A stretch of 60,339 nucleotides of DNA, counting the filler, from Sphacelaria rigidula (taxonomy: Eukaryota): assembly GCA_964200075.2 (NCBI GenBank). It is 9 parts of 9 records of this genome, joined end to end, with 100 filler letters (N's around TTAATTAATTAA, not from the genome) between each part and the next. Parts side by side here need not be neighbours in the genome. Positions count along the whole stretch, not along the records: positions 53,725 to 60,339 come from CAXNAA020019046.1; 8 more parts are not named here. One strand, 5' to 3'. Below the pieces are notes generated by a model that worked only from the letters and a program-made list of their open reading frames with translations, did no database searches and was not told the DNA's origin. The position numbers and the translations under genes were made by a program. Below, piece after piece: positions 1-60,339 of this stretch. Positions within the stretch are counted from its first letter, which is position 1, and each line of letters begins with the position of its first letter.

Positions 1-708
1 GAGCATGAGTTTCGAACGACGACGAGTTGGGTGTCGAAACAGATTTTTATGTTCGTGTCGGCAACGCACATACCAAAGGTTCAGGGCAATCGAGCAAGAC
101 CTCGGTCATGCTGGTTTTTCGTTTTGATCTGTCCCCCGACTGCCGCCATCAAACCAAATCATATCGGACGTGACGGCATAGCTTGAAATGATGAAAAAGC
201 ATGCCCGGGAGAGTGATCAGACTGCGCGACACACTCCGCGGCGGTTGCACGGTAGCAGGGAATCTGGTGGGACAGCCTGTATTATCCTCCGCCAATGTCA
301 ATTTCACTTCCGGCTATTTTTCGCCCAAATCTCTCACAAAACTCCCATTTTTGAGCTAAAGGTGAGTTGGGCCTGCTTGTGGTGACCACCGCAGTGGCAT
401 CAAGGCATATCTGTACCAACTGTTCCTGTGTTTGTAGCAGATTTGTAGCATTTTCTGAAAAACAATCTGGTCGCACACTGCAATTCATGCGTAAAAATAT
501 CAAGCACAGCAGCAACGAAGGGGATGGTCGGACCCATGTAAACAACGTACGTGAAGGAAAACATGGTTCTGGTGAAGAGGTGTGTATACCCTTTTCTCCG
601 CCATTTTGCGGCCTTTATCAGCACATGTTGATGCGTTTCGCGAGACAGTCTCTTCATATCTTGGGGGGGAAGTTCTGCTCATTTGTTGATTTCCCGAGGA
701 AGGAAGAA

Positions 709-9886: not shown

Positions 9887-12800
9887 TGGCGGTATTCAAC
9901 GTGTATATTCGAAATCAAAATGACAGAGGCTGAGCACACCGAGCAGCAGGAAACTCGCATATTTATGATCGTTCTCGCCTGTGTCACCGATGTGAAGCTC
10001 TCCATGCTGTCTAAACCCAGCGATTATGCGCTATAGAACCATTTTCTTCGTTGCAGTTCTGGAGCTGGCTTGGGGGGGGGGGGAATTTCGCGGCATCGCT
10101 CCTTGGCCGCGTCTAGGTTGCGAAAACGACTGGATCCCTCGAGGATCCGTTATCGTGCTACAGTCAATCAATCAATCAACCAATCAAGCAAGCAAGCAAC
10201 CAATCAATTAATCCTCAGGTGTCCTCCGGAGGCACACTCTCTCGAGGTGGGCTACCACACGCGGGACAAGACGAGTGGAACACGAGAAGTTCAGTCCCGG
10301 CTTCGCGATCAGGCGACTACCGTGGTCGAAGGCGACGGCGACGGCGTGCCACTGTCGTCGTCCCAGCTGCAGTGGTCTTGCCCGGTGGACAAAGTCGAAC
10401 CCTTCGCCGTTACCCTGTATAACGATTGTCGGAGGCGAGTTGTTCAGCGATAGGGGAAGAGGGTAATAGACAGAATTCACATTTTCTTCAGCAGCTTTTG
10501 GGCACTAACGTGGAAATGAGGCTCAGTCGTTCCCGTGGGGTTGCCGAAAATATCACCATAATTGATCACCAGAAGAGTTCCGGACGCGAATACAACGGTA
10601 AGGATAGCCCCAGGTATGTGTGCCTCGACAGTTTTGGGCCAAAACAGGTACAGGGTATACCACAGAACACGACGTCAATTTTGTAGCCATGTGGTGGGCT
10701 GCGATAGTCGGGCACTTGCCAACGACACAAAATGCCGCAGGTATAAGTGTTTTGTTGTCTTGTCCTCCAGTTTTTGTGCCTGGAATTTGACGTTCCGATC
10801 ATTCGGGTGGCAAGGGTTCCCTGCACGTGAGGAGGTCCCTAAAGAGCAAAAAAACAAAACATTTTCCCGCTTCTTCGACTGGGGAGCCACACAAGAACAA
10901 AATGGTCGCACACTTCCTTTCCACACGGTTTGCATGCTCCAGCTCACACGACGACCAAATGTTTGTTCATATTCCCCGACTTTCGAGTGAAGGATGATTC
11001 ATAGTCAAAACTGTTTTCTCGGCGAGCCAAATGTGGCACGCAAGTTGTACCGAATGCATGGTCAAGTAGAAACGGAAGTAAAGAGTGCCGAGGGATGAAA
11101 AAGAGGGCCAGCGAGTGCTGCAGAGTCATGCATACCAGTATCACAGCAGCCGCCCACACCCACCAGCCCCCAGACTGAGGTGAAGTACTGGTCGTTAGTC
11201 AGAGCCGTATCTGTTGCACTAGATCGTGATTAGGATATCTTCCGCAGGTTTTCGCTAGACAGCCGTGTTTTGGGCGATACTGCGCCTGATTGTTTCCCTT
11301 TCTGCACCCGTTGGCACTCATTGCGCCCGCTTCTGTTTGTCCTCGCACTCGATTCGCGGGCTACTATCGCGTGCATGTAAGACAAAGCCGGCATAACGCC
11401 GGGCTAACGTCTGCACAAAAAATAGTTCGACGCCTGGAGATCGAGAAACATGAATGCGCATACCGCGGTTGGAAGTGCTGCACCATGCGTACCGTGTGGG
11501 CAGAGATCGGAAGCTTGCGACATCGTCGTGTTGCCACTGTTTGTGAGAAGGGACTACCCCCTAGACTACCCAGTGAGCGCGGACTGAGAGGACGTACCGA
11601 GTTTCTGTTCGCGGTTCCTTGTTATGTTTCATCCTCTGAGACTCTGAGAGACGTTAGTGGGTTCACGCCTAGCATTGCGTCGGGAGTGGTGGCGCGGGAT
11701 GATGAGCGTCGGAGCCGCGACCGAAGAGCTTGTTAGAGGGAACTACCCACGAGACCGCTCAGTCAACGCTGACTGGGTGGTCCGGTGGATGGTTTCTTCC
11801 AACGAATAACCACTGTAGCAAGAACGAAAATACTTATTTCCCGCTTTTGGGGAATCGCCAAAGACGTGTACAAATTCCCGCCAGGTTAAATAGAACGCCA
11901 ACATTTAGGTAATGGTCTCTGAGAAAAACGACGAGAACTGACTACGCTTTCGACTTTTGCCACCACGAGTAGGTACGCGGCAGCTCCGGCAATCATATAG
12001 CCGAGAATCGATCGGTTTCCTGTTGTGGTACACTTTATTCCTGTTTCGATCCAAACGTGTCTGAGCATACCCGAAATTGTCGTTGAATGTCAAGATAACG
12101 GCGTGTATTGCATACTCCGTGGATATTATTGAAGTTGGTACAGTCACTCCCCTCTCTCTTTTGGGCGACTCAGGCGTTACGGATTGGTTCGCACCGCTGA
12201 GGAACGAGTCGCGGGACTACTTGGATCGGTCTTGGAACATATGAACGGTTCTGCGATTCTTCGACTTTTCGCCAGGATAATAGGGACACCGCCAAATGGG
12301 TTTAGGCTCGGAGGTCAGTAAACCGGCATCCCCATGTACGTGACGACAACAAAAGCATGGAGTCGTGTGACCAGGGGGGCTGGTGATCGGGGGAGAGGAA
12401 GGGGGTGTACTCATGATCTTGCATGCCATAGTCACTAGTACACCCCCTCACACACAGCTGGGGATGGGGGAATGACCAATTCCCGTGTGTACCGGTTTCG
12501 AAACATGCTTCTCCACAGCCACAACATATGCAGTGTTTTCCAACATGACATTTGTATTCTGACTAATGCCGAGCTAGCCCCCCCGCAAAAAGTGCACGGG
12601 AGAACGTCCGACAAACCGGCTGCGATCCCACTGTTGGGCTCGTTTGCAGCAATTTCGCCCACATGAGAGGCGTGTACCAGTCCGAAATCAGCTATAACGC
12701 CAAAATGAGTCGCGTCGTGCAGCACGAAACTAGCTCTAACGTCATTTATGATCATCGCCTCCGTGAACTTTTTTCGCCGTTTCGGGAGGAGGGGGGAAGG

Positions 12801-22107: not shown

Positions 22108-23900
22108 CTGATGTTCATGAACTCAGAGCGGATCGTGTGGACGCGACAAGGTACGGGAAACTGGTTTTTCAATCCCACTGTTACTGCAATCACAATGAGG
22201 AGTAAATTACAAACAAAACCAACGGTCGAGTAGCTGAGGTGCACGATAACAGAATCTACTCGCAATGAGGTGACAAAGGAGGGGGATAACACGCAGAGCG
22301 GTTTGGACTATCAAATTCTCATCAACAGGCCGGGGGGGGGGTTGCAAGTTCAGTCGTTTTCTACACTCAACAAAGCCCCGTGCTTCAAACAGATATCTCG
22401 TTTATCGCAAGACTCGATGAGGTGTTTCCAACCGCACCATCTTCTGCGACGTTTGCCCAGTAAAAGAGGAAACGTCAGGCTAGAGGTTCCATCGCCGTGG
22501 GCGATGTACTTAAACAAAGCTGGTTCCACCAAGAGATACTATGATTCGCTTCCAGGTCAACATTCAAAAGCTGAACTGAGGCAAATACGGAAAATACGGA
22601 AAAAACATCTCGGGATATTTCACGTGCACATGCCATGTCTTGACACTTTGGGAGTGGATATTATCTAGCTGTGGGCGTTACTTGAAGTCGGGAACAATGC
22701 CGTATTCACTCACGACTATCTAGGGTATAGTTTTATGATTGCCTTGGTCCGAAAAATCATTCATCCTATGTGGCACTGGCAAGAGCAAAAAGCTGTCAAT
22801 ATCTATCCAATTGACCTAAGCGTCGGTTCAGTTGAAATGAGACTTTGATTCATCACCGGCTTCACTTCAAGGCTTCATATACCCGTCCACTTTTTGTTTT
22901 CTTCTGATTACTGTAAGGGTGTTTGTGTCTTCCCCCTGTAGCGCTCGTGGGTGACAGTTCATGCCCAAATGGTGTGGTGCCCGAATAACGACCACGACTT
23001 CTTCTTCTCCTTCGCACGGCATTTACACTTACAGCCATGCTGGATGGAGTGGCCGTACTTTGCACCCTTGTTCACTGTTTCCTGAGTCACCACATTCACC
23101 ATCTTACGGATAATGAACACGGCCCGATTCCTCGGGGATCAGTTACTGTGCGTCAATCAACCAATAAATTTATCAATCAGACGTGTGTACAGATTTTCAA
23201 CCGAAAAAAAGCGGTCCCGCCAAGATAATTCATATATATATATGAATGCCCGCACTTGGCCCACATCCAACAATCGTTGTACTTGTTGTGAACAAAAAAC
23301 TTTCGTGTATTTTTTCACCGCAGCTGGATTATCCGGTGTCACGTGGCGCACAAGTCGGACACGACACAGGCTGCATTCCGCACCAATCGGCGGCACGTTC
23401 GGGGCCGTGCCACAAAATTAACGAAGCGAATATCGATTTTGGGCAACACTGTCGATCAGCCATCACTACGGCTTTCCCGCAGCCCACTCTGCGTGCACCG
23501 CCAGTGAAAGCATATCTTGACACGCTGGTGCACTAAATTTCATATCAGCAGCTGGGCGGCTGCTGCGCTGACAATAAAACATCGATCTGGATTGAGACAT
23601 CCACTGGATCATATAAACATGTACAAACTCATTCACATATCGCTTGCAGGGGTGCTCGGTTCGGGAGGCACGGCCGTACGCACGCTGTAGGCGCTGCAAC
23701 GCGAGGAAACTTCTGCACAGGTTATGCGAAGCACAGTCAACAAGCCCCTATCGCTGAATCTGGGGTTGTCTGTTGTGAAGTAGTGCGCAACGGGGTGAAC
23801 AGAGGTCAGATTTTGCCCTGAAGAAATGTATTTTTTCAATTTTTTATTTTGGTGCAAGACTGGGGAAGGAGAGATAAAACTCAATCTTGGAACAAATTTA

Positions 23901-24065: not shown

Positions 24066-26643
24066 TGAACAAATTCAAGTGTCAGTCAGACTCCAAAACG
24101 ATGTGAAGTGGCAAGGGGCCCTACCAGGTGCACGCTAGCCCCGCTCCCCCCCCTCCCCATCAGAAACCTCATTCTCTCCATTTTTCCAACACTACACGCA
24201 GTCGAAGGACACTTCAACCACCCAAGGATCACCTAAGGGTGAGTAGCTCAAAACTGAATAGTTTTGCGGTGTCAGTCCATTGGGGGCTGGGGTTCGAGGC
24301 GGTCTGACCGTTGGTTCATGATTTTGAAGTCGCGCAGTGAATCGGAAAATGACTCGCATGTTGCACTTGACCCTTGTGGCACAGGCGCCGATACAAATGT
24401 GCGCAAGTACAGCACGGGACTCGGTATTCACAAAATAGATACATGGTGCACATTTTTGTGTATAAGAGTAAAGGGAACACAAGTGCTAATTTTGGCTGCG
24501 TGCATAAAGTTGAACACGCTTGACCCGTTACGTCCTCTCAATAGACAAAACTAATCGTACTGCACCGGAGTGACATTTTTGGTGCGCGCACGACGTATGC
24601 TGGTTGATTCTTATGTGGCCTTCCACCGTAAAATGGTTGCTGTCGGTATTTCTGTTTCCATTTTTTCTTATTTGTCGGGGCTTGAAATAAGGAGGCGTCT
24701 GGCCCGGGGACGAAAGAGGAGGGTTCCCGGAGGGTTAGTTGTCCCACTTACTGCACCCGCACATGCCCGTACACACCAGGGATAGATAAATAGTCGTCAT
24801 CGCTATCAATTGCATCTTGGGGGTACCCCCCCCCCCCCCCCCAAAGGGGGTACTCCCGCCCCAGGCCTCGTCCTTGAGGATATTTTCTAGAGTTGGGGGG
24901 AGAGGGCAGAGAGAGGGTGTTCTCATGATCTTGCATGCCGTAGTCACACTATCACCTCGCGTTACTACAAGGCCGGGACGCAGTACACCGAGTTCTCTCC
25001 GGACCAGGCTCCGGAGGGCAGGGAGGGCGTGGTCTGCAGGTGGTAGGCTCCCTTGGTAATAGAACTGAAGACGGGAACAAAGCCATGTTTGTCGTGATCA
25101 TGTAGGTAGGGCATACACATAAATGTGTTGACTTGGTGGCTTGATGGCTGCGAGATTATCGAAAATTGGAAAAGTACCACTTCGATACGAATCGAAATGA
25201 AACGACTGATATTTGGCTTATATGCATAATACTTTGTTCAGGTATGAAGCAGTACGTCGCAGCACAGTTCGGGACAGGGCGCCGTGTTCGTCTTGGATCA
25301 CCATCAAGCGGATGTGTGCAGAGGACGTGTGCCGCGGGTTCTTCCTCTTACTATTAAAAAAGCGTCATGGTAGAAGATTCCTTTGTCTCTTGGTGAGAAC
25401 AGCTCGTTTCCAGGACATCTGAACGTAAGTACCGCATACTCGTGGAATGGGACAGCTCACGCGTCGTGAAGCTTCCCGCCATTCATCACATATTAATCTA
25501 AAAGGTCATTATTCCGTGCTCAGGGTGATCGTATGCAATGTGCCGCGGGTGATGAACGGCTGGTGCTGCAAACAGCATACAGTCCATCAGCGTGGGGCGT
25601 TCGTCAGGGGATGATTATGCAAGGTACTCTTATGCTGCATAACATACAGTAAGTCCGTTTCCCAAATATCAGATAGAGGACTTGGAGGAGGCAGCAGGAT
25701 GCACTGTGAACACCACCCTGAAAGAGTGCTCTCTCGGCTCTAACGTAGCAACAGCTTACATACGGCGTACGCTACCCTCAGACGCCAAATTTGTACGGTC
25801 GAAAACTCGGAACTCGTGAGCGATGATTATGGGTGGTGGAAGTTTGTATATTATTGAATTTGGCCTCACTTGTAACTTGTCCCCCTTTTCGGGACGAGTC
25901 CGTGGTCTCGAGGGATCAGCACCTCTCCCCCGGTGCACGCCTTAGATTTTGGTATCGCGGGTTGGACCATGACTAACCCCTCCGCACAACGTTGATTGTC
26001 TGAAACAGTTGTCACTGGATAGGTGCGTGGGCCTTCCGTCAGACTTGTACGCGTCCCGAGGCATCAGACCAAAAGTCATTCCTAAAAATACCGAAAATGA
26101 AGCCAACGTGAACGCACGACATCTCGTCTCAACCAAAGCTGCAATGGAAACCAGTATTGACCCTTTTAGGACCGCTGATGGAAAATGACGATTTACAATG
26201 GACGTTTTCTTGGCAGGATTATGGATGTTTTTTTGCAAGTGTTGATGATGCAGCCCACCGGAACGGTACACCACTCTAATTTAAAGTATACTAATGTGAC
26301 AGATTCGTGCACCGAACTCGAAGCGACGTTTTCCCGGCGACGAAAGCTCGCAGATGGGAGTTTGTACTGTTTTTGGTAAAATCCAAAAGGGTTAATAAAT
26401 CCCCCAGTTTCATCTTTTCGAAACGATACCAACCGCTACCTGTGAACACTACGAGATCGTAGAGTCAACTCATCAAAATATAACTGACATACGTGGTAGC
26501 ACAGAGGAAGTGACGATTGACCGGTTCTCCAAACAATGTTTTTAGAGCTCGGAAATGGTTTGTCCAACCATGAACCATTCGGATGGTAATGTGTAGCGCA
26601 GTGATTAACCATTCAAATGGTGCGTAGAGGTTTGGTTATCTAA

Positions 26644-28146: not shown

Positions 28147-28403
28147 TTTGCACGATGAAAAAAAAAAAAACTGGAAAAAAACCCTTTGGTCGGCTGCTTG
28201 TTTTTCAGGGCCTCAACTGCGAGACCGATCGCATATCAAAACCAACCAACAAAAATGTTCGCATTATCATCTACATGAATGGGCTGGCAAACGACTGTAG
28301 TACACTAGTACACTGTGTGTCTTCTCAATCCAAGGATTAATTAGCCTGCACCGGGGAGAACCCGACGTGCTCCGTCCCGGCTTTATAGGGGCGGACCCCC
28401 CCC

Positions 28404-28890
28404 GTTGGGGTTGGCATCGGCTGGCGATGACGCTGTAAAACACGCCACTCACTGCGTAAGCTAGGTAACTAGGTGAAGGATTTTTTTCGTGCTTGCGTTT
28501 CTTTTGGCGGTGACCATGATAGTGGCCTCATGTTGTGTGGGGTGGGGGGAACCTCAACTCCGCGCAATGGCGATGATTGTACTACGTCGTGTTCCAAGAG
28601 TGAGACATCCGTGAGGCAGTGTAAAAGCCGTGGCTGTCTCAGGAAGTGGCGATACCAGAATATGAAGCGACTCATTGCAGGCTGTCATCTAGATGCAAGA
28701 TAGTCAGTAGGCTTTGAGCCGAACAATCGTAGCAGGATGCAGCTCACCCTTCATGCGACTCGCCGAACACACTCGCGCTTGGTGATTGAGTGCGAGCTTG
28801 GTCCGACGGGAACCCGGCGTGCTCCGTCCCGGCTTTGTAGGGATGCAAGGTCAATGGTCATATGGCTACGGCATGCAACATCATGAGTAG
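28404..28890 (+). mobile_element. ~490-bp non-autonomous retroelement (family C-SINE) with LINE-like 3' tail
   Basis: Colinear with 29727-30238 and 54770-55266, with the same 5' start (GGTTGGCRTC...CTGTAAAACACGCCAC) and a 3' end ATGAGTA followed by a C-rich run. Confidence 0.85.
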
Positions 28891-28943
28891 ACCCTCTCGT
28901 CTCCTCTCCCCTTCCGCACAAACCACACATCTTCCTCTCGTAC

Positions 28944-29066
28944 CTGAGCCTGCAATTTGATCTTGAAGAGATCCACGGGCGCTTCCACGATGGTGATCGG
29001 GATTGCAGCAAGCGAACCTGCCGCGTAGTATTGAGGGACCGTCAGCTCATTGCCCCCGCCAACAAC
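28944..29066 (-). CDS. Internal exon of a mitochondrial carrier (SLC25) family gene
   Basis: CCAG|...|GTACGA bounded 123-nt phase-0 exon encoding VVGGGNELTVPQYYAAGSLAAIPITIVEAPVDLFKIKLQAQ, which contains the carrier signature Px[DE]xx[KR]x[KR] (PVDLFKIK). Confidence 0.85.
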
Positions 29067-29341
29067 CTGGCAAAAATGGCACGAACAGCAGGAGAAGGGA
29101 TAAGCGGAGAACATCAGGGAGGAAAACACAACCCCTCTTGAGTATTATATAGCTTTGTTGCCGTCAGCCACCAAGAGGTCTGATACAGATTTCGAAACAT
29201 GAGCACACCACGATGATACTTGAAAAATTAGTGGATGTTACAAGTGCTTGTTTGCAGCTAAGCAGTGCCAAAGGTGGACTCCCTGTGGTGAAGATCCCTG
29301 GTCCCTGGGGCACGCCATGTTACTCCCCCCCCCCTCCCCCA

Positions 29342-29417
29342 AAACCCGGTGTGCTCCGGCATTGCAGGGATGCGAGGTCAATGGTCTGATGACTATGGCA
29401 TGCATTATCATGAGTAC
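29342..29417 (+). mobile_element. 5'-truncated C-SINE tail between two C-rich tracts
   Basis: CCCCCCCCCCTCCCCC-AAAACCCGGTGTGCTCCGG...GCATTATCATGAGTAC-ACCTCCTCCCTC. Confidence 0.8.
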
Positions 29418-29726
29418 ACCTCCTCCCTCGGACAAAACGGGGAAGAGGGGGTGGGTATGACAGTAGTGAAACGAAGTAGGGTCATAATCCAAACCCCCAA
29501 ACTCGTGAGGGAAGACGTGGTGAAGTCCCGGCAATGTTTGTGCGAGAAAATCACGTGTCTTGCGTACGGAGATGCCGATGCCTTGTATACTATTGTGTTT
29601 GGTAAATACAAGCACGGGTGGCAATGCCTTTTATGTTGAAATCCGTGACCAATTTTGTCGTAGCCATTCATATCACCAACAGTTCTACAGAGAACGAGGA
29701 TACCGATAACCTTCCCCCCACACCCC

Positions 29727-30238
29727 ATGGAGTTGTTGGCGTCGGTTGGCAACGGCGCTGTAAAACACGCCACCCACTGCGAAGCTAGGCAACCAGGTTA
29801 CCATTTCTTTGCGTGATCGCGTTTTTTTGCGGTAACCATGATGGTGGTCAAGGTAGATCATATTATGCGGGGCGGGAAAACCTCTACTCCGCGCAAAGGG
29901 GATGGTCATATCACGTATATTACGTAGTGTTGTAAACGGTGAGACACCCATGAGGCAGTGTATAAGCCGGAAGTGTCTCTGGAAGTGGCGATACCAGAAA
30001 ATTAAGCAACTCATTGTAGGCTGTGATCCAAATGCGAGATGATCAGTTAGCTTCGGGCTGAACAAACGTAGCAGGATGCAGCTCAACTTTCACGCGACTT
30101 GCCGAAAACACCACGGCACTTCGAGCTTGGTGATTGATTGCGAGCCTACTCCAGCGAAAACCCTGCGTGCTCCGTCCCGACTTTGTAGGGATGCGAGAGC
30201 AAGGGTCTCATGACTATGGCATGCATGATCATGAGTAC
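29727..30238 (+). mobile_element. Full-length C-SINE copy
   Basis: Colinear with the other two copies; flanked by CTTCCCCCCACACCCC and GCCCCCCTCCCCCCCTCCC. Confidence 0.85.
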
Positions 30239-32324
30239 GCGCCCCCCTCCCCCCCTCCCTCCATGAAAAAAACAGATAGACGAGGGACACCCGGACCTAC
30301 GAGACGGCTAAGACAGGTTAGACGCCAGTATGTGGGCGCGTACTTCCCTGGGGGCGTTTTTTCGAGCTGAATTGGTGACGTCCCTATAGGGGCCATTGCG
30401 ACGGTGGAGTACAATTTCACACCGTCGAACGCAAGTCCACCTCGTCACCTTCTGAAGCTGACAACTTAATCTCGTGTCTTTCTTCCTTCTCGCAACTTGT
30501 GCGGCGTGAACTGCCCTGCAAGCACTATTTCGTCGTACTCGTTGAAAACTGCAAGGCAATACAAAACAGTCGGATTCGGGTGGCGTTACACTAGATCATG
30601 TCTTCGATGGTACGTGTTGTGCACAAACGTTGGCGGCAACGATCCGACGGGCCGGTGCCCCCCCCCGTGTAGCGTGAAGGACGTGCTGGCATCGATCAGG
30701 GAACGGCGAAGGCTGTGGACAGACATGGCGCAACGGTACTGTCAAATATTGGCTGGGGACTGCACGCTTGACGAGAACTTTTACACTGCTGTGCACAGTT
30801 CGGAGCCAGCCTTGCGGAAGCAATATGTCAGGGCGTGTGACGAAATCACGCCGTCACCTTGAGTATAGAGTGATGCTTGGATGATGACTTGGGATCTGTA
30901 GTGATGATATGGATGATGACATCCACACAGGGGTGATACCCAGATGTGGTTTATGGAGCCGCCTGGGAGTCACTCGGAGATAATAAAAGGTGTTGTGAAG
31001 GCTAACAACTGAGACCTGAGACCAGTGGAACTGGGGGGTCCCTCAACAACACTAGACGCTGCAGTACTAGCGACCTGCTGGCGTCACAGGCGCAAGCCGA
31101 CGAAGGACGAGTCGTCGCCAACACGATGGCGTGGAGCAAGGAAAACAATAACGCCACAATCAGCTCCGTATCGTCGCCGACCGAAGCTTTGACGATACAC
31201 GCAGACGAGCGCGGGCGTACCCAACAACCCTTACAAATATGGGAACGGGTGCCCTCGAGCGCGGAAAACCCGAAGCCCCCGACGGAAGGGTGTCCGAAAG
31301 TATCAGGCAGCCAACCGGAATCTGCCAGATGTCAACGGGACACGGATAAGGTGGACGGCGACGTGAAGGATGATAAAAAGAGACCAGCAAACCCCGAGCA
31401 GCTCCCTGCTCCTGGAATTGCTCACGCGCCGTGATGCACACTTGTAGCATCGCGTGCTGGCCGGTCGCCACACAGCTGACGTGTTTGTTGACCGGGTGGT
31501 TGTATGCATCAGGGTTAGAAAAACTCCACGTGGGCCTGCGGTGGCGCAGATTATAAGGAAAAGTGGCCGATGCGCAGCTGTTGGGAGTTTCTCTTTGCGG
31601 CTTGCCGCAGGAAAAAAAAAATGGGGGTGTTTTTCTCGCCGCGAGGCTCATACCGTCGAAATGGACCCTATTCTGACGAAACCCAGGCATCTTTTGAGAG
31701 GAAAACCCCCAAAAAATCGCTCCGCGGGGCCCCTCCGAGTGGGGGCCTACGCGGCCGGCGCCCTCTGGGGGACCCCTGCGGGGGGCCGAATGTCGTCTTC
31801 GGCTCCCGCCTGCGAAGTTTTTCTAACCCTGGTATGCATGTTCTGATTCGTTCAAGTCGACTGTGAGCACAATTCTGGATTATTTGGGGCGTTCCCCCCC
31901 CGTGCACGCTTCACGTTTGCGACCGTTTTCACGATGAGCACGGCCACCTATTCAAATGGGCCTTTTTTCTCTGCCGGGCAACCACTTTGCTGTTTCAGTC
32001 AATCGACCAACCGTGCGTTGCTCATGTACGCGTGATCCTGTGTGTATCGGTGTTTGCGTACCTCTATTGGCATCGAAATCTGCGCCCGAGAAAGATAGCA
32101 CAGGCGGCACTACAGCAAAAAAAAAAAAATGCGTTACAACAGGTATTCCTTGTTTTGATTTGATGCGATACATTGTCGCATATTAACTGATCCCTAAGTC
32201 ATCCGGTCCTGGGCATTACCCACGATATAGACGTACCCAAGGTGAAAAAAATGGAACACTCGCTGTAGGGGAGAGATCTGATCAAAAAGGTGTAACAGAC
32301 ACAGAAAGCAGACTGAAAAAAAAC

Positions 32325-39715: not shown

Positions 39716-42700
39716 ATCACGCCCTTTTTCTCGATCGTATCCGATATGTCCGCATTTCTGTTCTTGGGAGGCTTCAACTCAAATTTATGATGGTGACGTA
39801 CGGAGGAAAACTACTAAACAAGATGAGTTTCTCAATCTGGAACATGCGGTAAAATGGCGCGAAGCGGCACGTGACTTTCATCTTGAAGATCACCATGCAA
39901 ACACATGTAGGCTTTTGCTTCTGCGCGCATATAATTTCGCATCAAACGGGGTTTGCACATAAGCATATAACAACGTTTTCGTGAGATTGAGAGTAGATCT
40001 TCGATTGAGAGTGGCTTTGGTCATTCGCTTTAAGTGAAATATTTTTTTATTCCACATGTGCTTTTCTTTACCCACATCACCTGCGTGTGTACAGCTACAC
40101 GTCGATATCCTACCCAGGGATATCAAGTGCCTCAGTGGCCAGCTCTTGCAGAAAGCATGTTGACTCTCGTGGAAGTGCATTTCGGAACTGAAACNNNNNN
40201 NNNNNNNNNNNNNNNNNNNNNNNNNNNNNNNNNNNNNNTTAATTAATTAANNNNNNNNNNNNNNNNNNNNNNNNNNNNNNNNNNNNNNNNNNNNTGTTTT
40301 GGGAGGGGTTAATTTGCGTGTGGCCCAAAAAAACCCCATTTGGTCGGGGGGGGGGGGGGGGGGGACAAATATGAGACATTGTGATCATCACTTTATCACA
40401 TTACATTGCATCACTCTGTCAGTGTCGAGATACGTTCATGTACTGCACCAGTCACTTCCTGCGGCGCGCACGGTATGCCTTCGGGGAGGGGCCGGAGGGG
40501 TGGGCGTACTCATATTTGGGGGGGGGGTGGTTCTGCGAGACATACCTGACTGCCCGGTGTTTCATGCAAAAGCATTCACAGATGCCATTATAGCCTATAT
40601 ACCGTACAGTAGAACACTAGATCAACGCGCTCCAGTTCAGCGCTGCCACGGTACCAGTCTGCTGACGCTATGCCGCCTTTCCCTCGTGGAATATGGTTTT
40701 TTGTCGGGTGCTTATTTTCGGTAGGACCTAAACCCTTGTATTGGGTGAATCCAACGATCTTTCCAAACGATTTGCGGGTCTCGTGAATCCTTGGACAACG
40801 AGCGTCGCCTCGGAACAGTTTTACAGGCTGAAAGTCCGAGACATCCGGGGGTTTCCAGGGGGCGGGGAAGGGTGTGGTTTACACCAGGTGGGGTGGGGGG
40901 CTGTTCGTAGAACAGCCGAAAAGCTCACCAAGTCTACCACGTGTGTTTGGAAGTTTCCCACGGAGGATAACGAGCCAAGAAGGAGGCCCGAGAGGATCGC
41001 AGAGACTATTCTGAACAATCACGGCTGCCAAAATGGTCACTTTGTTGCCCTACAGGTGGACTACAGGAGAATTACTTCGCTGTCTAGCCGTATTTCTGAT
41101 TTTAGTCACGGCAATTCAACCATAGATTACATCGGCACGAATGATGTGCTTTATACGCTGCTCGTGGTCTGCACCGACCGCCTGACCCCTCATGTGTTGC
41201 CAGCATAGCCTCACACTGTAGTGTTGTTGTGGAACACCAAGCACAGACATCAAGAGCATGCACTACATTGTGTTTAGCGGAGAGCGGTGGCACGCTGATT
41301 GTTTCCACCGTTGTATCTAGCGAAGACATACAGCACATATGCTAACTTTGTACGTGATAGACCGCAGGGTCGAAACCGGTCAAGGGGTTATCGGGGAGTA
41401 TTCCCTACATAGATCCCAAGATCCACATAATTATGAAAAAAAAAGACGTTTCCACCTGTGGAGGGGTTGCCGTCTGACGCCGTGTCTTATTAAAATTTAT
41501 CTCGAACGAATCCGTGCGGCGAAATTGATTCAGTTTGTTTTGCTGCGTTTTGGGTCCAAGCGAATTTGCACACTTCCGATCGAGAAAGCTTAGCGAAATT
41601 CGCGAAGCGGTACTTGTTTACTTGTAATCAATACAGACAGGACAGTACTGTCTGCACTGTCTGCACAGGGTGTGTGTTTCGTACATGGGGATGTGAAGAA
41701 GAGAGGGGCAACGGGCAGAACAGACAGCACAGGACTGTCCATATTCTCTTCATACAGAAGGGTACGAGAAACATTTGAACAACGTGCAGTTTTCTACTGC
41801 CTGTACTGTCCATGAGCGTGTGCGCAAGTCGGCCGTCCACCTTTCCACGTAGTTCCGTCGCCAATTCCAAACAGGACAAAGATGGTCAACTTTCGCCAAC
41901 AAAATAGTAACACATCATACCCAACTACTGCAGTGTATCTATCCCTGTGCTCAATTTGTGCTCTATGCCGCTGAGTTGCGGTGGTAGCTAAGAATGCGCT
42001 GTGTGGGGTATGCATGGTTCTGTGAACGGGTGGTGTTTGGCGTGGTGTTGTGCAACATAGGAATCGAGTGCCCGTTCGTACTTTCCGCCGCGTGTTTTTG
42101 ATCGAGAAAGCTACAGTAAGCCTTTCTGTATTTCACCCTGCCCGTCGCGCGCAAATAGTAATGAATTGGACTTGAAGCCACCTGAGAACATGAATGCCGT
42201 TGACATAGAAGATACGAGCTAATCACGACTGATTCGGCTCGACCGCGCGTTTTCGAGTAAAACAAGAATGACAAGACACGGCCCAATACTTAGACCCTTG
42301 GACGGCGAGAGTAGATCATCTGCTGAATCAGCAACAACTTCACGTTAAAAAATTATTCATGATCCAGATGGACCGCCCTCGCAGTGTAAGGGTCAAGACA
42401 AGGCCCGCACAACCGCCACACGGGGCCGCCATACGACATAGTTGCAGGAGCCGTAGCAGTGCATCATGTTTTGCCATCAGCAGCAGAGTCAATGCAAACA
42501 GGCACTTGTGCAACTGATCACATGGACTTAGTTCTATGTACAACAAGAAATATACGATGTTTTTCACTAGAGCATGAGGTACGTTCATGTACACACCTGA
42601 GTGCTACATGGGCAAAATATCATATTTTTACTATTTCGATACGTTTTCCCGTGTTTCGGAGCCTTCAACTCACTCTCGTATCAGCAGCAGTGTCCGCGAA

Positions 42701-45808: not shown

Positions 45809-46198
45809 TAATGAGCCGTTTAGTGACAGGGTCAGAAGAAATTCGGAACAATATTTTACAGGCCATTTACCGGCCCACGTTTGGTGTCTGTGTATTGAAA
45901 CTTTGAGTGGGGCGTGGCTGGGGCATAATTAACAAAACAAAGTGGGTCAGGTTGATTTTTTTCATTTTTTCCGCTGGTTTAGGGCGTTCTACTATGGTTA
46001 TGACCATATCATTCGAGAACGACCTAACCTCCATGACAAAAAAAAAATGGAAGGTCATTTTTTTGTTGGCACTCTTCGGTGGTTCTCCACACCAAAATTC
46101 GTCGCCATCCGCTAAATGCATGGATCAGNNNNNNNNNNATCTGCTACCTCCCTTAGGTATAGGAATTACTGGACATGGGGTTTAATCAACGAGAAAAT

Positions 46199-46850: not shown

Positions 46851-46909
46851 GTACTCAATTGTTGCTTGCCTTAGTCGTGTGACCATTGACCACGCATCCC
46901 TTTCGAGAC
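46851..46909 (-). mobile_element. 3' end of the C-tract LINE, cut by contig end
   Basis: G9-C-GTACTCA.TTGTTGCTTGCCTTAGTCG... is the reverse complement of 57500-57559. Confidence 0.85.
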
Positions 46910-49820: not shown

Positions 49821-49834
49821 AATGGGGGGGGGGC

Positions 49835-49902
49835 GTACTCATTTGTTGCCTGCCTTAGTCGTGTGACCATTGACCACGCATCCCTTTCGAGACGGAGCAC
49901 CG
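49835..49902 (-). mobile_element. 5'-truncated C-tract LINE tail between G-runs
   Basis: Reverse complement encodes GAPSRKGCVVNGHTTKAGNK* followed by GTAC and the C run. Flanks are AATGGGGGGGGGGC and AATATAGGGGGAGGGC. Confidence 0.85.
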
Positions 49903-51192
49903 AATATAGGGGGAGGGCGATGACGAAGCATACATGATTACATGTTCACCTGATACTTGGCAAGAAAATTTGGCAGGCTTGTCAGACAGGCCTCTGCGAG
50001 CTTGGACATGGATTCGCGGAGCTCCTGTCGCCACAATAAAAGCACGGCACATAGCGCACATCAGCATATCAATACGGCCATCCGTCGAATAACCAACACC
50101 AACGCACATTTTGTTGACGGTGAACTACTAGGAGGGGGGAGGGAGGGGGCGTACTCATGACCTTGCATGCTCAGGTGGGATGCAGTGGCCCTCGATTGGG
50201 CATGCTTCGCTTTTCGGCGCGATGAAACTCCTCGCCCGAGGGAAAATCATTCGTTTTGTACAAGTGATCGAAAATGCGATCTTCGGTCGTACATGACACT
50301 CACGCCCGAGGAAACGTTCCTTGCAGCGAGTTCAGAAACGTTTCGGCGTTTCTCAGGGGATGGGGTTCGGTAGCATTGCTCCCCGTGAGGAGACACCAAA
50401 AACAGGTCGATTGTGTATAACCGGCGGGAAAACAAAAAATGGGGTGCATAAGAAACGGCCTGAGTGCATGACGCACCCATTTTCAAAGAAGAAATCCACT
50501 GACGATCGCATTTTTTTATTTATACGAAGTATGGGGCTTCCACTGACATTTTTGTGGCGGGCAGGTTCTAACTGTTTGCCTGCGCGGGTGGTCATACTCT
50601 GGCTGCGCGCCCGTTGGTACGACTGGTACAACTCAAAACCGTAAGCGTGAGGGTGTGAGTAGCACCGCAAAATTGACGTGAATCGACGCAGTAGTGCGGG
50701 AGCTCTGCCCCACTCCGCGATAGCAGAATACCATTATAGGGTGTGCGCGACAGGACGAACAATTTTGCAGGTAGCGGCAGCACGAGCTGCGCAAATTGCA
50801 GCGCAGAAGAGATTACTATTGAAAAATACAAAAGTAAAAGTCTTCGGCGGCATTTGTGACGATCCTTACTTTTCCTTTCTTTTCATCGTTTTAATGTATT
50901 TTATTTCATTTGCTCTGTACTTTCCTCGTCTTTTCCTCCTTTTTTTCGTTTCAGGTCGGCCATTTCTTCATGTGCTTTACTTGTGTTGACTTTTTGTCAT
51001 TACTTTTTTTTTTGTCACGACTTTATCTGCTCTGTCGTTCTGTTCGACCTTTTTTTTCTTCTGCTCCTTCTTTTCTTCAGAGCGTGTTCCAGTTTCGTTC
51101 TTCTTGAGTACGTCCGTCATGTGACCACGGCTGGACCCCTGGGGGGTCAGTTAAAGTGCGACAATCAATCAATCGATTAAAATTACGATCTA

Positions 51193-53724: not shown

Positions 53725-53793
53725 CTCCGTCCCGGCTTTGCAGGGATGCGAGGTCAATGGTTTTCTGACTATGGCATGCATGATCATGAGTAC
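53725..53793 (+). mobile_element. C-SINE 3' tail at contig start
   Basis: CTCCGTCCCGGCTTTGCAGGGATGCGAGGTCAATGG...GCATGATCATGAGTAC. Confidence 0.8.
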
Positions 53794-54769
53794 ACCAACA
53801 GGCCCCTCCCAGAACTTGAGGTAGCGAGGTCGTACAAAGCGCAACGCCGCAGAAACTCGGTGTGACTCAGCTGTTTAGGGACCACATTACAGTATTTGGG
53901 CAGGAACCCTCACCCGCCGGCTCTGCAGGAGCGAGAGACTGGGAGACGAATACGGAGTTATGCTACGGTAGGGCTGCACAAATATTTGATGAGTTTAGAA
54001 TTCTTAGGTGCCCTTGATTTCATGCAAAACACCACTTACGAAAATATGTGAAAGTACGCCAGGACTACTACTCCAATGTGCTGGGGATATCCCGAATGGA
54101 TTTGCAAAGGGGGATGCCCTGATCCATATTCTTGCGCATTTAAAATCGTTAGGAGCCCCTGAAGTGGACACTATGTCGCGAAAAAAGTGCGTCCCTACCG
54201 TAGCATTGCTCTACTGTGGAATCTGGCAATCTCGATCCCACGATCTTAGACAAAATGTTCAGGTCTTCGAACACCCGTTTCCTTGCACTCCCCGACTTCT
54301 AGAGGGGTTGATACTGTCCCAGACGCAGAATTTCAGATTTGAGAGCGGGAATGTAAAGAAGGGTACTGATGAAAAATGGGAAAAAGCTGATACTACTACC
54401 ACTGCTGGAGGGCACACACGCCCTACCCTGCAATTGTAGGGGGTGCCCTCCAGGCGAAAATCAAGTCGCTGCCGTTGCTAAAAGCTCCGTCGACTAAATA
54501 TTCGGGGAGAAATACAGGGAAGTCACACATCATATCATCATCATCATCATCATCAACAACAACAACAGCAGTAGGGTTTGTTTGGAAACAGGCCCCTGTC
54601 GCGTCTTGTTTTGTCCTAAGGAAAGGTGTACAGCAAGCTCGTCAAAGAACGATCCCTGGGGTTTTACCCCGAGAATTTCGACTGAACGTTGTGTGCTGTA
54701 GAGCTGAAATACATTTTCTACACAGATTTTCTACGCCCGTCATACCTTCAACTTCTTCCCTTCTCCCTC

Positions 54770-55266
54770 TTGAGGGTTGGCGTCTATTAGCGACGACCCT
54801 GTAAACACGCCACTCACTGCGTCAGGTAGGCAACGAGGGTGTCGCTTCTCTTCTCAATTGCGTTTTTTTTTCGGAAACCATGATGGTGGTCGAGGTAGAT
54901 CCTGTTGTGCGTCGTGGCAGAACCTCAACTCCGCACAATGGGGATGACCGTACCACGTAGTGTTAATATGGTTAGACTCCCATGTGACAGTGTGTAATCC
55001 TTGGCTGTCTCTGGGAATGGCGATACCAAAATGAAGTAAGTTACTGCATGCTGCCATCCATATGCAGGATCATTTGTACCCTTTGGGCCGATCAATCTTA
55101 GCAGGATGCAGCCCACTCTTCACGCGACTCGCCAAGCAGATCTCGGCGCTTCGCGCTCGGCGATTGATTGCGAGTCCGGCCCGGCGAAAATCCGGCGTGC
55201 TCCGTCCCGGTTGTAGGGATGCGAGGTCAATGGTCTTATGACTTCGGCATGCAAGATCATGATTAC
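54770..55266 (+). mobile_element. Full-length C-SINE copy
   Basis: Colinear with 28404-28890 and 29727-30238; followed by ACCCCCCCCCCTCC. Confidence 0.85.
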
Positions 55267-55578
55267 ACCCCCCCCCCTCCGATCACGAAAAGAAAGTTCA
55301 CCTCGAGTCAGATCAAGCCATCTCCCCTCCGGTACATCCCTGACATTTTCATATCGAGGGTTGTATCAGCAGTCTTGCACCTCATCAATTCGCAAACTTC
55401 TCGTACTACTCATGTCCTCAGGCTTCCAACACCAGACAGAAATCAGAAAATTTTCGGAACAAAAAACGCCTACGAATATCTGCCGGGATTCGAACCCTTG
55501 ATCTTGTGTCTCATCTGGCGATTATTGTTGTGTCAGTCAACATAGACCGCCAGGACGCCGCACAGTGATGGTGCGATA

Positions 55579-55720
55579 TGCGGGGGGGGGGTGTGCTCAT
55601 GATCATGCATGCCATAGTGATAAGACCATTGCGGGGGGGGGCGGGGGGGGCGTAGTTGCTCGCTCTAGTCGTTTCAACGTTGACCACGCGCCCCTTTCGA
55701 GACGGAGGAGGGGAGGGGGG
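55579..55720 (-). mobile_element. Stacked 5'-truncated tails of C-SINE (55593-55629) and C-tract LINE (55652-55707) within G-runs
   Basis: TGCGGGGGGGGG directly repeated on both sides of the SINE tail; the LINE tail is bounded by G8 and GGAGGGAGGGGGGG. Confidence 0.8.
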
Positions 55721-55932
55721 GCGATTCCAGGACAAACATCGGCTCAAAGGTGTGTCAGATCGTTCATTTCTTCGCGGTGCGTTTGTACTTGGGTGAAAGC
55801 GGTGTCCAGTAGTATGATTCAGTGTGCTTTACAGTAAACAAGCGCGTTCGAACAACTGTTTCTGCTTTCAACGACCATATGAGGTGGAATTTCGTGGAAG
55901 AAATGGCCCCAAAATACCCCTCCCCCCCCCCT

Positions 55933-57559
55933 CGTAGCATCTTTCTGGACGTACGAAACACTTGTGACACAGTATGGAGAAATGGGCTGTGGAAAAAATT
56001 GTGGGAAACTGGGATCAGAGGAAAGATGTAGAGAAGGGTAAAGATAATAGACTGTGCCAAAAGTGCTATGATGCTAGACGGGGAAATATCGAAATATATT
56101 TGGATATTTTACAAGGAGTTGCACAAGGATGTACGTGGTCACCCACTCTATTCAAGGTATTCACCAATGACCTGATAGTAGCAATAGAACCAGCAAAGCA
56201 ATGGATCAAGGTAGGTGAAGATATGGTATCAGGATTGATGTTCGCGGATGGTTTTGTCGGAGTATCAGGAACACCAGAAGAATTGAAGGAACAAATAGAT
56301 CAGGCGCTAGAATACACCAGGAAATGGAGAGTGATAACAAACGTCAACAAATGCGCGATACTCGTATGTAGCGAAGATAAGAAACATCCGGTAGAGTTCA
56401 AATAGAAGTGGGGAGGAAAGGAACCGCCGATCGTAAACTAGTACGCATACCTTGGCGTACAGATCTCAAAAACGGTTCTTGGGATGCACACATATACGAA
56501 GTAATAGAAAACGGTAAGGCGCAGATAGGCAGGATGGACGTGATCCTCGGAGAGTCGCACCTAGGTACTAGGATTAAAAGTTTTAACCTGATGAACGTGA
56601 TTGTAACAAAGGAGGAATATGCAGGAGAAGTATGAGAGGGGAACGTAAAGTTGGCGAAGAAGTTGGAAGCAGTACAGGTGGCAGCATCTAAGAAAGTACT
56701 TGGGTGCTCGAAAACGACGAGTAATACAGTATTGAGAGCAGAGTTGGGAATGTACTCACTTGAAACTAACAGAGGCATAAGAAAACTGAGATGACAATAT
56801 CGCGTAAAGAACTTGCAGAGAGAGAGATTGCCAGCCATAGTTGATAGGGCTGTATGAAAGAAGAATACGAAAGGGCAGGTTGGAAAAAGGTGGGATAGAG
56901 AAGTCGAGAAAATATGAAAAGAGATAGGAGGAAACCAAGACAAAATACTACAAGACAAAAGTGAGAGACACGATAGAAATAAGGGGGAAAGAAGCGCTCA
57001 GACGCAAAGTAGACGAGGAAAAACACCTGGAGGTAGACGGGGGGTTGAGAGAGGGGATAGGGATGAAAGCATGTCTGTATGGCCCCGAGGACGCGGCGAA
57101 ATTTTTGAAACTGTGATTTCGGGTGGGGGACCTGGACCTGCCAGGAAGAAAAAAGAGGTGTACCAGTAGACGAGAGGAGGAAGAAATAGGTGCACATAAT
57201 TATCCCTGTGGCAACGCAATAGAGAGCAGAAGTCATATCGTTGCAGAATGTGAACTATACAAGGAGGGACGGGACGTGCTAGAGGGGGAAATGCGGGACG
57301 TCAAAGAAGTTGGCATGAAATCGTCTGATGCATTAGACAGTAGCAAGAAAACGATGGCTATACTAAGAGATAGATGGTGGCCGCAGACGGCGAAACAGGA
57401 CGGAGATAAGATATGTAATTTTCATGTATAGTGTATGGAAGCAACGTGATGAGCACCGGGATGTTAGAGGTGCCTCTATTAGGAGTAGGAACAGTGCTCC
57501 ATCTCGAAAGGGGTGCATGGTCAACAGTCAGACGACTAAGGCAAGCAACAAATGAGTAC
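55933..57559 (+). mobile_element. 5'-truncated, decayed non-LTR retrotransposon (LINE) ORF2: reverse transcriptase + C-terminal Cys/His domain
   Basis: FLDV..TCDTVWRNGLWKKLW, GVAQGCTWSPTLFKVF.NDL, LMFADG (YADD-like), KWRVITNVNKCAIL, YLGV and PCG.AIESRSHIVAEC, with several stops and frameshifts. Flanked by C-runs on both sides. Confidence 0.92.
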
Positions 57560-57828
57560 ACCTCCCCCCCCACCCCTATCGTAGCAGTGCTGCGCAGCAC
57601 TGTATATACCTCGTATGTCGCAATTGGCAGGGCATACGAATCCTGGGTAATAAAAAAGACACACTCCGGAGACGATGTTACCGATTCCCAGCACAAACAA
57701 CCGATATCAAAAAGGGGTCAGCGAAGCGATACTTTCCTTCTTCCATAAGCAAATTTTATCTTGGATGAGTTTATTCTTAAGAATTGAGGTCTAACCCTGC
57801 GCCGCTATCTTTACGGTATTGAGTAAAA

Positions 57829-58030
57829 ACAGGAGATCCCGAAGAATGAGAACGAAATTTTCCTATGAGAGTGAACAGAGGTCGAAATTTTATATCCTTT
57901 TGAACCTAGTACCCGTCAAAGCTTGCCGTCAAGGCACGTTTGATGGGTACTAGGTTCAATGTCATGTACAACTTCGACCTCAGTATGCTTCTATGGAAAA
58001 TTTTCGTTTCCATTTTTCAGGGTCGTCTGT
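57829..58030. mobile_element. Palindromic MITE-like element, ~200 bp
   Basis: Complementary pairs TTGAACCTAGTACCCGTCAAA / TTTGATGGGTACTAGGTTCAA, GAGGTCGAA / TTCGACCTC and AACGAAATTTTCC / GGAAAATTTTCGTT. Confidence 0.75.
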
Positions 58031-60339
58031 GACTAGCTCTTGTCTTCGACACAATCGTCTTTGCTGGGAGTGATACCGCGATAGGCTCCTCCAAAACCAG
58101 CCCCAAAACTAACACGACAAATATCGCCATACAGTGCATGGTACCTGGTTTCAGCCTCGCATGAAGCCCCTCATATGGGCGACATTGGCGAAAACTATCC
58201 CAAGCATGGAAGGTCCCAGCTGCTCGGTGTGCTCGGCTCCTGTCATTTTAGTGTACATGTAGAGTTTCCTTCCTCATACCAGCCATTAATCCGGGGGGGG
58301 CTATCGCGTCATCACGCAGGAGTGTGTTTCCCTATTCAACTAGCGTCATCGCGCCATACAAAAGTCAATTCACTCCAAAGATGGCACCATGACGGTCGAC
58401 GACGTTGGTCATTAGCCAAGGCAACAGTTTCAACAAATAATCGTCGTAGACTGTTCCAAGATATTTGATTCCACCAGAAAAAGGAAACGACGAGATACGA
58501 AGAAACGCTGAACATCATAAGTGGAACATGGCACACATGATACGCGCACAAATAAACATTCGACCTTAGGGTTAGGGTTAGCCTCACCCTAAGATACGCG
58601 CACACATAAATATTCGTCATGACCCATGCTTCGGTCGCCGGGTGCCCACTGCAACACTACAACACGCCCGAGCAAGTCGCCAACAGCCCACTCTGGCAAA
58701 ATCACGCAACACAATGAACCGGATCCCATCGGATCGCAAACGGACTCACGAGTACAAAAAAAACAAAGAAGTCTCGCCGGCACGAAAATCAGTTTTCGAC
58801 GTACGCCCTTTCCAGCAGCCCCGCGCTGCTGAAAAAACTTGGGCAGATAATGTATCCAAACATATTTCGACGAGCGCGTGTACTGCCACTGCATAGCCAT
58901 ATGCGTCAGTCGCAATCTGCGGATCACTCTGAACCTTACAGGAACAAGTCGCTGCCAATACGTTCTTCAGGGCATGCCAATAATTTCACTTGCTTTTTCT
59001 GCGAAGATCTCGTTCTGTTTCGCTGGCCGACCCCGAGTAAATTGAACGATGCCTGCCACAATTGGAACACGCTTGCGCTCCCCACATACCGCGGTACTGT
59101 AGTTGGCAAGCGGACAGGATACGTATCGACACAACCCGAGCGTCAAAAGACGCATCTGATCGTCTTGAGCTCACGTCCCCTGCACGATTTTGCGTTGACC
59201 CCACGTTTCTGATGCCCCGGGGCTATGTCATCGGAGGCAGCTGTCACACAAAACATGGAAGCCGCGGTGCTAGTACGGCAGTACTGGTAAGCTACATCAT
59301 GAAACAGATGGCATTTTGATGGTACCCCTAACACATAATCATCGGAGATGGCAGACTTGCGATGCGTACCTGGAAAGCCTCAGTGCTAGTAGGGCAACAC
59401 TGGCCAACACCGAGACACCACACAACATTGGCTTCTCTACACCTGCGACAATCTGTAAGCTCACACTTCGGTTTGCTTACGTATCAAACAAGAACGCTGA
59501 AACATTCGGCGCAGGCCATCACATCATTTCCACCCCCGGCAGCGACCTCCGAGCAACGCAAAAAGCGCGACACGGTCACGAACGTCAACCATCTAACACC
59601 ATCACCAACAGAGTAAGCGAAAAAAAGGTACCAAGGCGCCAATATTTGCTTGTAAACGATACAAGAGTCCCATGTGGAATGAAAACACACAAAAAATTAA
59701 CCAATGAAATAACAACAAAGCAACATTGATAGAACGACATGGGCAACCATAGCCTGATCCGCGGCATGCTGACAATCATACCGTACAGAAAAAAATCCGG
59801 TATTCGGAGCTTCCCCGGGATAAATCGTCGCCTTGGTCTACCCTTCATCACGTCCCCAAGGTATCGCGAATTCGTCCACGTATCCTACGAACGCTGCCAA
59901 AAAAATGGGACGTGGGCTCGAAAAAAACATAGAACGTCGCGGTATGGCCTGCGGCCGCAACTTGAGGTCAAATCGATGGCGACCTTGTCGCAGCTCGACT
60001 TAGCCAACATGTGCGTAGCCAAGGAGTGTCAGATCTCTTGGTTCTTGCATACAGAGACACACATATACCCCCCTCGAATTTCTGGCCCTAGGGCTCTTGT
60101 TAACGAGGCAATTTGTTCAGATTTATCTCCTTATTTTTTCCGACTTTTGTTTCCCCCCGACTTTTCCCCAGAACAGAATGCTGGAAAAAACTCCGACGCT
60201 TAATCCTCGGAAAAATCTGTAGTCCGCCTCAAATTAATGTATTCCCTGACCTGGTAAAAAATCTTGGGCAATATACAAAAAAGGGTACACCCTTAGGCTT
60301 TTGGAGCAAAAAAGGGTGGCGCATTTTTCGCTCTGGGGC

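Follow-up and report, generated by a model that had tools for sequence, protein, structure and literature searches.

C-rich runs at the ends of an RTE-X-like LINE and its non-autonomous partners in the brown alga Sphacelaria rigidula

The DNA analysed here, referred to as the window, is a stretch of 60,339 nucleotides (nt) from the Sphacelaria rigidula assembly GCA_964200075.2, and it contains the decayed remains of a long interspersed nuclear element (LINE) together with a set of shorter copies that share its 3' end. The window consists of nine pieces of ~6.6 kb joined by spacers of the form N44-TTAATTAATTAA-N44 (at 6617-6716, then every ~6.7 kb). These pieces are separate small contigs of one assembly, and neighbourhood across the spacers carries no meaning; piece 7 has an additional internal N10 at 46129-46138. 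The LINE lies in the last piece, between two C-rich runs:

55922..55931, plus strand: C10 run adjoining the 5' end of the truncated LINE; belongs to a possible target-site duplication (TSD), ACCCCT-C10-TCGTAGCA
55932..57559, plus strand: LINE, RTE-X-like, 5'-truncated and decayed, with reverse transcriptase (RT) motifs and a C-terminal Cys/His motif
57560..57575, plus strand: 3' C-rich run (ACCTCCCCCCCCACCC), tail and/or target

An earlier note, made from the sequence alone, had described a decayed LINE that begins directly after the C10 run and ends without poly(A). This description is borne out by a Pfam RVT_1 match (4.9e-10 at 55968-56405), by the presence of stops in all three frames of 55932-57559(+), and by the 3' end, where CAAATGAGTAC at 57549-57559 runs into ACCTCCCCCCCC and poly(A) is absent. 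Protein homology begins at ~55942, and the bases at 55932-55939 may be TSD or microhomology. The LINE was matched to residues 815-1360 of protein P0005 in five frame-shifted tblastn segments with 64-68% identity, and it shows 58-65% protein identity to the Ectocarpus-type protein P0004. Both P0005 (1360 amino acids, aa) and P0004 (1328 aa) are intact single proteins carrying Exo_endo_phos (residues 170-392 and 142-383, respectively) as well as RVT_1, and an intact 1382-aa open frame of the same kind, running from the endonuclease (EN) through the RT, is present on the external contig L031; the relatives thus possess a single EN-RT open reading frame (ORF). Among solved structures, L1 ORF2p and R2 come closest to the full-length relative. 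The window copy has no endonuclease because it starts at residue ~815, and it corresponds to the 3' 40% of a single-ORF LINE of the APE type.

The end of the element was found to be coding. The C-terminus of the full-length proteins reads ...APSRKG.VVNGQMTKASNK (...TKASNK), and the window LINE ends in ...APSRKGCMVNSQTTKASNK (...TKASNK*), then TGA, GTAC and the C run. The ORF stop TGA at 57553-57555 lies 4 nt before the element end, of which GTAC are the last bases; the end reads ...AAC AAA TGA GTAC, with a purine as the next base. Hence, the conserved terminal ~70 nt is the C-terminal coding sequence of the ORF, and the 3' untranslated region (UTR) is only about 4-5 nt long.

A tail profile (nhmmer), comprising the last ~72 nt and 5 flank bases, was run over the window. 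It gave 13 significant matches (E<=1.1e-3) on six of the nine contigs, and these are the LINE and exactly the 12 further sites at which the 3' end had previously been listed as recurring. The copies are about 22 to 1628 nt long with a constant 3' end, which indicates variable 5' truncation; their 5' boundaries were placed by eye, where similarity stops. Two types of tail can be distinguished. LINE-type tails are found at 46851(-), 49835(-), 55652(-) and 57559(+), and partner-type tails are one base longer and out of frame. The tails align and a single profile detects both types, the 3' end of the partner being common to the LINE. Three full-length partners of about 490-505 nt have the same 5' start and a pairwise identity of 74-77%, by which the window copies are old. 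The copies other than the LINE, with two sub-threshold candidates and one fragment, are as follows:

28404..28890, plus strand: full-length non-autonomous partner, N1-like, about 490 nt; C8 immediately upstream
29733..30238, plus strand: full-length N1-like partner; flanks C-rich on the 5' and 3' sides
54776..55266, plus strand: full-length N1-like partner; 3' end followed by C10, CT-rich 5' flank
29342..29417, plus strand: 5'-truncated partner, about 76 nt; preceded by C10TC5
49835..49902, minus strand: 5'-truncated LINE-type tail, about 68 nt; its 3' C run is the plus-strand G10 at 49824-49833
46851..46909, minus strand: LINE-type tail interrupted by the contig end; 3' C9
53725..53793, plus strand: partner tail cut off at the contig start; least C-rich of the 3' flanks, 6/12
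55593..55631, minus strand: partner tail, 39 nt, within the C tract behind the 55652 copy; 3' C10
55652..55706, minus strand: LINE-type tail, about 55 nt, with a 7-nt internal deletion near the end; C runs on both sides
12407..12438, minus strand: partner tail, about 32 nt; C-rich 3' flank, immediate 5' flank not C-rich
50151..50172, minus strand: partner tail, about 22 nt; E=0.0011
24917..25010, minus strand: diverged partner tail; E=1.7e-10
40506..40517, minus strand: 12-nt candidate for an ultra-short copy (AAATATGAGTAC), with C10 on one side and a C-rich run on the other; E=2.6, not significant alone
675..688, minus strand: candidate ultra-short LINE-type end, about 14 nt, downstream of a 40-nt C run; not significant alone
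28352..28395, plus strand: 3'-truncated partner-tail fragment; C8 connects it to the full-length copy at 28404

Pieces such as the 3'-truncated fragment at 28352-28403 are not produced by target-primed reverse transcription (TPRT) alone; a template switch or a later deletion is possible. The partners were examined for a recognisable head. No tRNA was found in the copies by ARAGORN over the whole window, and no Rfam family above threshold was found in 28300-30300, which covers two of the three long partners. Therefore, they can be called short interspersed nuclear elements (SINEs) only in a loose sense: of the "LINE/SINE system" proposed earlier, the LINE and the partners with a common 3' end stand, and the strict SINE does not. 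A conserved RNA structure in the common tail found no support: none of 13 predicted pairs had a compensatory change, and the covariation term was -0.28.

Alignment of contigs from four public runs to 53725-60339 showed a very high degree of repetition of the family in the source organism. The summed contig depth over element bins is 10^4-10^5 times that of unique bins, a figure that arises from cross-mapping copies and is not a copy number. Contig depth was also raised, to 10^3-10^4 times the unique level, at 53946-54387, 55714-55934, 58145-58365 and 60134-60339; thus, other repeat families adjoin the copies.

The sequence on either side of these copies is rich in C. Flanks were counted for the 13 significant copies, of which 11 have a visible 5' junction and two are cut by contig ends; the sub-threshold candidates at 40506(-) and 675(-) were added to give 15 3' ends, and the counts include two copies (55593 and 55652) that have one C tract in common. 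At least 6 C's occur within the next 12 nt at all 15 3' ends (background P=0.0675), with the copy ending at 53793 lowest at 6/12, and at least 9 C's at nine of them (P=0.004). On the 5' side, at least 8 C's are present in the 15 nt upstream of 8 of the 11 significant copies (background P=0.029), and the mean of 12.9 C's in 25 nt, against a background of 6.25, was reached in 0 of 100,000 random sets. The C runs at the window copies are thus far beyond chance. Both statements of the earlier note on this point, that nearly all 3' ends abut C-rich runs (at 53793 only weakly) and that the 5' flanks are usually C-rich although the truncation points differ, agree with these counts, its list of 5' flanks having omitted the poorer ones. 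C runs on both sides, irrespective of the 5' truncation point, are what insertion into C:G tracts predicts.

The window holds 38 C/G runs of at least 7 bases in ~59 kb, 12 of which touch the end of a significant copy (15 counting the two candidates), and several reach 17-40 bases. In one of the four public runs, 290 contigs continuing beyond 57571 gave a consensus of 15 further C's with a low agreement of 0.38. The copies at 55652 and 55593 form a head-to-tail pair linked by a C tract. The longest tract, G40 on the plus strand (C40 on the minus strand) at 709-748, lies in a C/G-homopolymer-rich stretch at 663-794; upstream of it, no 3' end of an element can be recognised. Expansion of a tract, the tail of a copy that can no longer be recognised, or a fault of assembly may account for it. 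That the G/C homopolymers in general are artefacts of sequencing or assembly, caused by poly-G read ends in a fragmented short-read assembly, can be given next to no credence. The pieces are indeed small contigs, the run at 709-748 is 40 bases long, and one contig ends in G11 (13322-13332), which suggests that homopolymers interrupt the assembly. Against this, the runs occur at defined element ends, in element orientation, and in five contigs from other assemblies; C-rich ends are recorded in the table of an independently curated library (PMC12477816), and contigs of the four runs span 55248-55610 and 57542-58188 without differences.

It is also very improbable that the C runs are part of the element consensus, as C-rich 5' and 3' termini. 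The full-length partners do begin directly after C-rich sequence, and "(C)n termini" are listed for one Ectocarpus family, RTEX-2_Ec32, in a table of PMC12477816. However, C-rich 5' flanks are found despite different truncation (about 22, 32, 39, 55, 68, 76 and 1628 nt), and the length and interruptions of the runs vary between copies.

On balance, it is probable that the lineage consists of brown-algal single-ORF LINEs of the RTE-X kind with an APE endonuclease, that its TPRT is primed by a nick ending in G's, and that C:G tracts are preferred targets. This proposal builds on what is established: that the element is a LINE, that the 3' module is common to the copies, that each copy has a 3' C run, and that 5' flanks in the window genome are C-rich. 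The element terminates in a C run in place of A's, with practically no 3' UTR, and the non-autonomous partners copy the last 60-70 nt of the LINE. According to the proposed mechanism, the nicked bottom strand would end in G's during TPRT, and the (C)n end of the RNA would base-pair with these, as poly(A) does with the T-rich nick of L1; C:G tracts would therefore be the preferred targets. Every insertion would leave a fresh C tract, so that later copies next to earlier ones, tandems and very short abortive copies would be expected. We infer both the pairing of the G run as primer and a target preference, rather than C's added at integration. A stricter form, in which the LINE lineage is specific for the (C)n:(G)n mononucleotide tract, is primed from the 3'-OH of a G run and has been retained since before the split of two brown-algal orders, is put forward tentatively and is somewhat doubtful as a whole.

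Relatives outside the window were sought with a gapped tail pattern, which gave 30 loci in three public collections, 26 of them distinct and five of them true family members. In the 12 nt past the pattern match, 9-11 C's were present in all five true external members versus 1-7 in the 21 chance matches; hence, the lineage has the 3' C run as a constant feature. The 5' flanks speak against a simple target explanation. L025, truncated to 336 nt and bearing C9TC9 at the 3' end, has 4 C's in the 15 nt upstream, and the 5' flanks of eight external copies, which belong mostly to a diverged partner family from algal contigs within a bacterial metagenome-assembled genome (MAG), have a mean of 7.1 C's in 25 nt against a background of 5.85 (p=0.08). 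Since these copies combine a 3' C run with a 5' flank near background, a genuine (C)n tail exists. The suggestion in the earlier note that the elements insert into C:G homopolymers rather than carry a C tail is therefore upheld in part: in the window the C runs stand on both sides of most copies, but the denial of a C tail does not hold, given the (C)n tail of the external copies. A tail and a preference for certain targets do not exclude each other.

Several external junctions show how C tracts join copies. At L044 and L045, a C-rich stretch is followed by 5-10 unique bases and then by the element, the look that would be expected of an L1-like TSD starting with primer-complementary bases. L026/L031 carry a LINE-GC13-partner head arrangement, head to tail, and at L047 a second partner head begins about 35 nt past the CT-rich tail of a copy. 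At L044 (~1470-1500, minus strand) the 3' end ATCGAGTAC occurs twice with a 9-nt CT-rich spacer between (ATCGAGTAC-GTCTCTCCT-ATCGAGTAC-ACCCCC), which looks like a 9-nt abortive second copy inside the tail of the first. L031 (G002:C43) and several G001 contigs are plainly algal, though the genomes are filed as bacterial MAGs; they carry the intact 1382-aa LINE ORF and N1-like partners, and represent eukaryotic contamination of the bins. The partner-type 27-mer had 0 matches in the metagenomes, and a protein scan of viral contigs gave no relatives.

The external copies bear on a further explanation, in which there is a tail only and no target preference: the RNA would carry or acquire a (C)n tail, and the 5' C's would arise at integration, by a jump of the RT onto the C tail of another RNA followed by a stop, by untemplated bases or by accumulation beside older tails. 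For R2, jumping of a LINE reverse transcriptase between templates is established. Copies with a 3' run and no C-rich 5' flank outside the window fit this explanation, as do the C tracts that join head-to-tail arrays and ultra-short fragments, the 3'-truncated fragment joined to a full-length copy through C8 at 28352-28403, and 5' C runs that abut the element with no unique TSD part, together with a null TSD test. Nevertheless, it is regarded as unlikely. The 3' end of another copy precedes only one of the eight C-rich 5' flanks (55593, behind 55652), which makes a tail alone the less economical explanation; 28404 follows an internal fragment and the remaining C-rich 5' flanks follow unrelated sequence. 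A template jump copying just C's would be needed every time, and untemplated additions of the kind known from other reverse transcriptases would leave the sense strand with G rather than C at the 5' junction.

A target preference is itself opposed by a number of observations. In addition to the 5' flanks of L025 and of the eight external copies given above, three of the 11 window copies have a 5' flank that is not C-rich (12438 with 0/15, 54776 with 5 and 29733 with 7), and 23 of the 38 C/G runs of at least 7 bases touch no recognisable copy. In most window copies the 5' C run directly abuts the element, without a unique TSD part, which fits long C-tract targets and equally C's made during integration. 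TSDs were assessed by a permutation test, in which the 5' flank of a copy was aligned with the 3' flank of that copy and, for control, with those of the 12 remaining copies. True flank pairs scored a mean of 17.0 versus 16.9 for mismatched ones (p=0.41), and p was 0.42-0.58 when C:C matches were down-weighted; the copies are old and the flanks all C-rich, and TSDs were not separable from the composition of the C runs. For the LINE, a TSD candidate was identified by eye (ACCCCT-C10-TCGTAGCA / ACCTC8ACCCCTATCGTAGCA); because true flank pairs score no better than mismatched ones, such by-eye TSDs are leads only. TCGTAGCA at the 5' junction of the LINE may be element sequence or microhomology, and other copies read CGTACTGTTTCTTTCTGGACG in its place (loose end at 55961, aligned run contigs). 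A BLAST search with the flanks found no paralogous empty site in the window, and no junction spanning a copy was present among those listed for the aligned contigs of the four runs, there being 2066 further junctions. The placement in RTE-X is provisional and depends on the blastp notes of PMC12477816. A repeat at 55837-55931 finishes at the 5' C10 of the LINE and could provide paralogous empty sites in the full genome.

The family was compared with known systems, beginning with those of other brown algae. In the mobilome of Ectocarpus sp. 7, published in 2025, RTEX-1_Ec32 is entered as "single EN-RT ORF; (C)n 3'" and RTEX-2_Ec32 as "(C)n termini/TSD"; RTEX-N1_Ec32 (604-607 bp) is annotated with "60 bp 3' end 83% RTEX-1/RTEX-2", "can be present in tandem" and "may not be true SINE", RTEX-N2_Ec32 is 188 bp long, and the TSD column of Supplementary Material 3 gives "C-rich" for all four (PMC12477816). 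The earlier note had known of no such family in brown algae, and in substance these entries, table notes without an analysis, answer that point; in the main-text passages available, the words "C-rich" and "homopolymer" are absent and targeting is not discussed (PMC12477816). According to the same tables, the Ec32 RTEX families resemble the window family in the single EN-RT ORF, the (C)n 3' end and the tandems; their TSD entry is C-rich, and their partners have the last 60-100 nt in common with the LINE at 83-87% identity and a head of unknown origin. They differ in that the long partner of Ectocarpus measures 604-607 nt and that of the window about 490-505 nt, and in the host, the window genome probably coming from another brown-algal order. 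Part of P0004 has a near-identical counterpart in the Ectocarpus protein P0001, and the C-terminus of P0004 matches the window 3' module. The protein identity of 58-65% to P0004 suggests that the window family is related to, and different from, RTEX-1/2_Ec32, as compared by protein. The kind of element is already catalogued, and the window family adds one more member to it, from a second order of brown algae. Two other kinds in the Ectocarpus tables, RTE-1/2_Ec32 with (CAA)n and CRE-1_Ec32 with (CA)n 3' ends, share the host group and have short-repeat 3' ends in place of poly(A); their repeat unit is another one and their entries hold no C-rich TSD (PMC12477816).

Microsatellite-specific LINEs of the APE type are known from other clades. 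A 2013 review describes Waldo (ACAY)n, Mino (AC)n, Kibi (TC)n, Koshi (TTC)n and Dong (TAA)n, in which the endonuclease is thought to choose the repeat, and its list of such LINEs contains no mononucleotide C/G (PMC3812793). As described there, these elements are like the window family in being APE-type LINEs with the same simple repeat on both sides, and unlike it in their clade; the repeat unit of the window family would be one base (C:G), and 3 of its 11 window copies and most of its external copies are without a 5' run. No LINE specific for a C/G homopolymer was described in the literature searched (the bracketed spelling poly(C) lay outside the search). In the brown-algal genome preprint, the words retrotransposon, transposable element and RTE are absent and "line" never stands for LINE, and the Chlorella RTE-X paper is silent on tails and targets.

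L1 and Alu have a poly(A) tail and a T-rich nick site. The window family would follow the same logic of complementarity between tail and nick, and is like them in its 5' truncation and in partners mobilised via a common 3' end or tail; it differs in C/G versus A/T, in that its partner has about 60-70 nt of specific 3' sequence and not just a homopolymer, and in having one ORF and almost no 3' UTR. Tails of the L1/Alu type seed mononucleotide microsatellites, according to the same 2013 review (PMC3812793).

Other features of the window are few. A 646-codon open frame at 20182-22122(-) has a CCCH zinc finger (weak Pfam matches that fall short of the curated cut-offs). Among named homologs, a Sphacelaria rigidula protein matches it best, with an intron-like gap of ~120 codons; Laminaria and Scytosiphon have relatives too, and one further protein shows 100% identity across 72% of the query. 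The 703-codon open frame at 1125-3236(+) matched no Pfam family, and 8000 scored candidates included no homolog of it. ARAGORN predicted a tRNA-Gln (CTG) at 6192-6268(+).

The family and its C-rich ends are already in print, and what is new here is the second host lineage and the coding nature of the common 3' module. Since this module is present in Ectocarpus-type proteins and in the window genome, the lineage looks old and vertically kept. If it were specific for (C)n:(G)n, this would be the first case of a LINE with C/G-homopolymer specificity, an element that both requires and produces such tracts, and near-zero-length abortive insertions would explain much of the G/C-run load (38 runs of at least 7 bases in ~59 kb). 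If tail and target are both C:G homopolymers, the pairing logic by which the L1 tail meets its nick is not bound to A/T, and the family would be a natural system in which to ask whether the endonuclease or the priming step determines target choice. G/C homopolymers disrupt short-read assemblies and can adopt unusual DNA structures, and their abundance in brown algae would then be linked to one transposon lineage.

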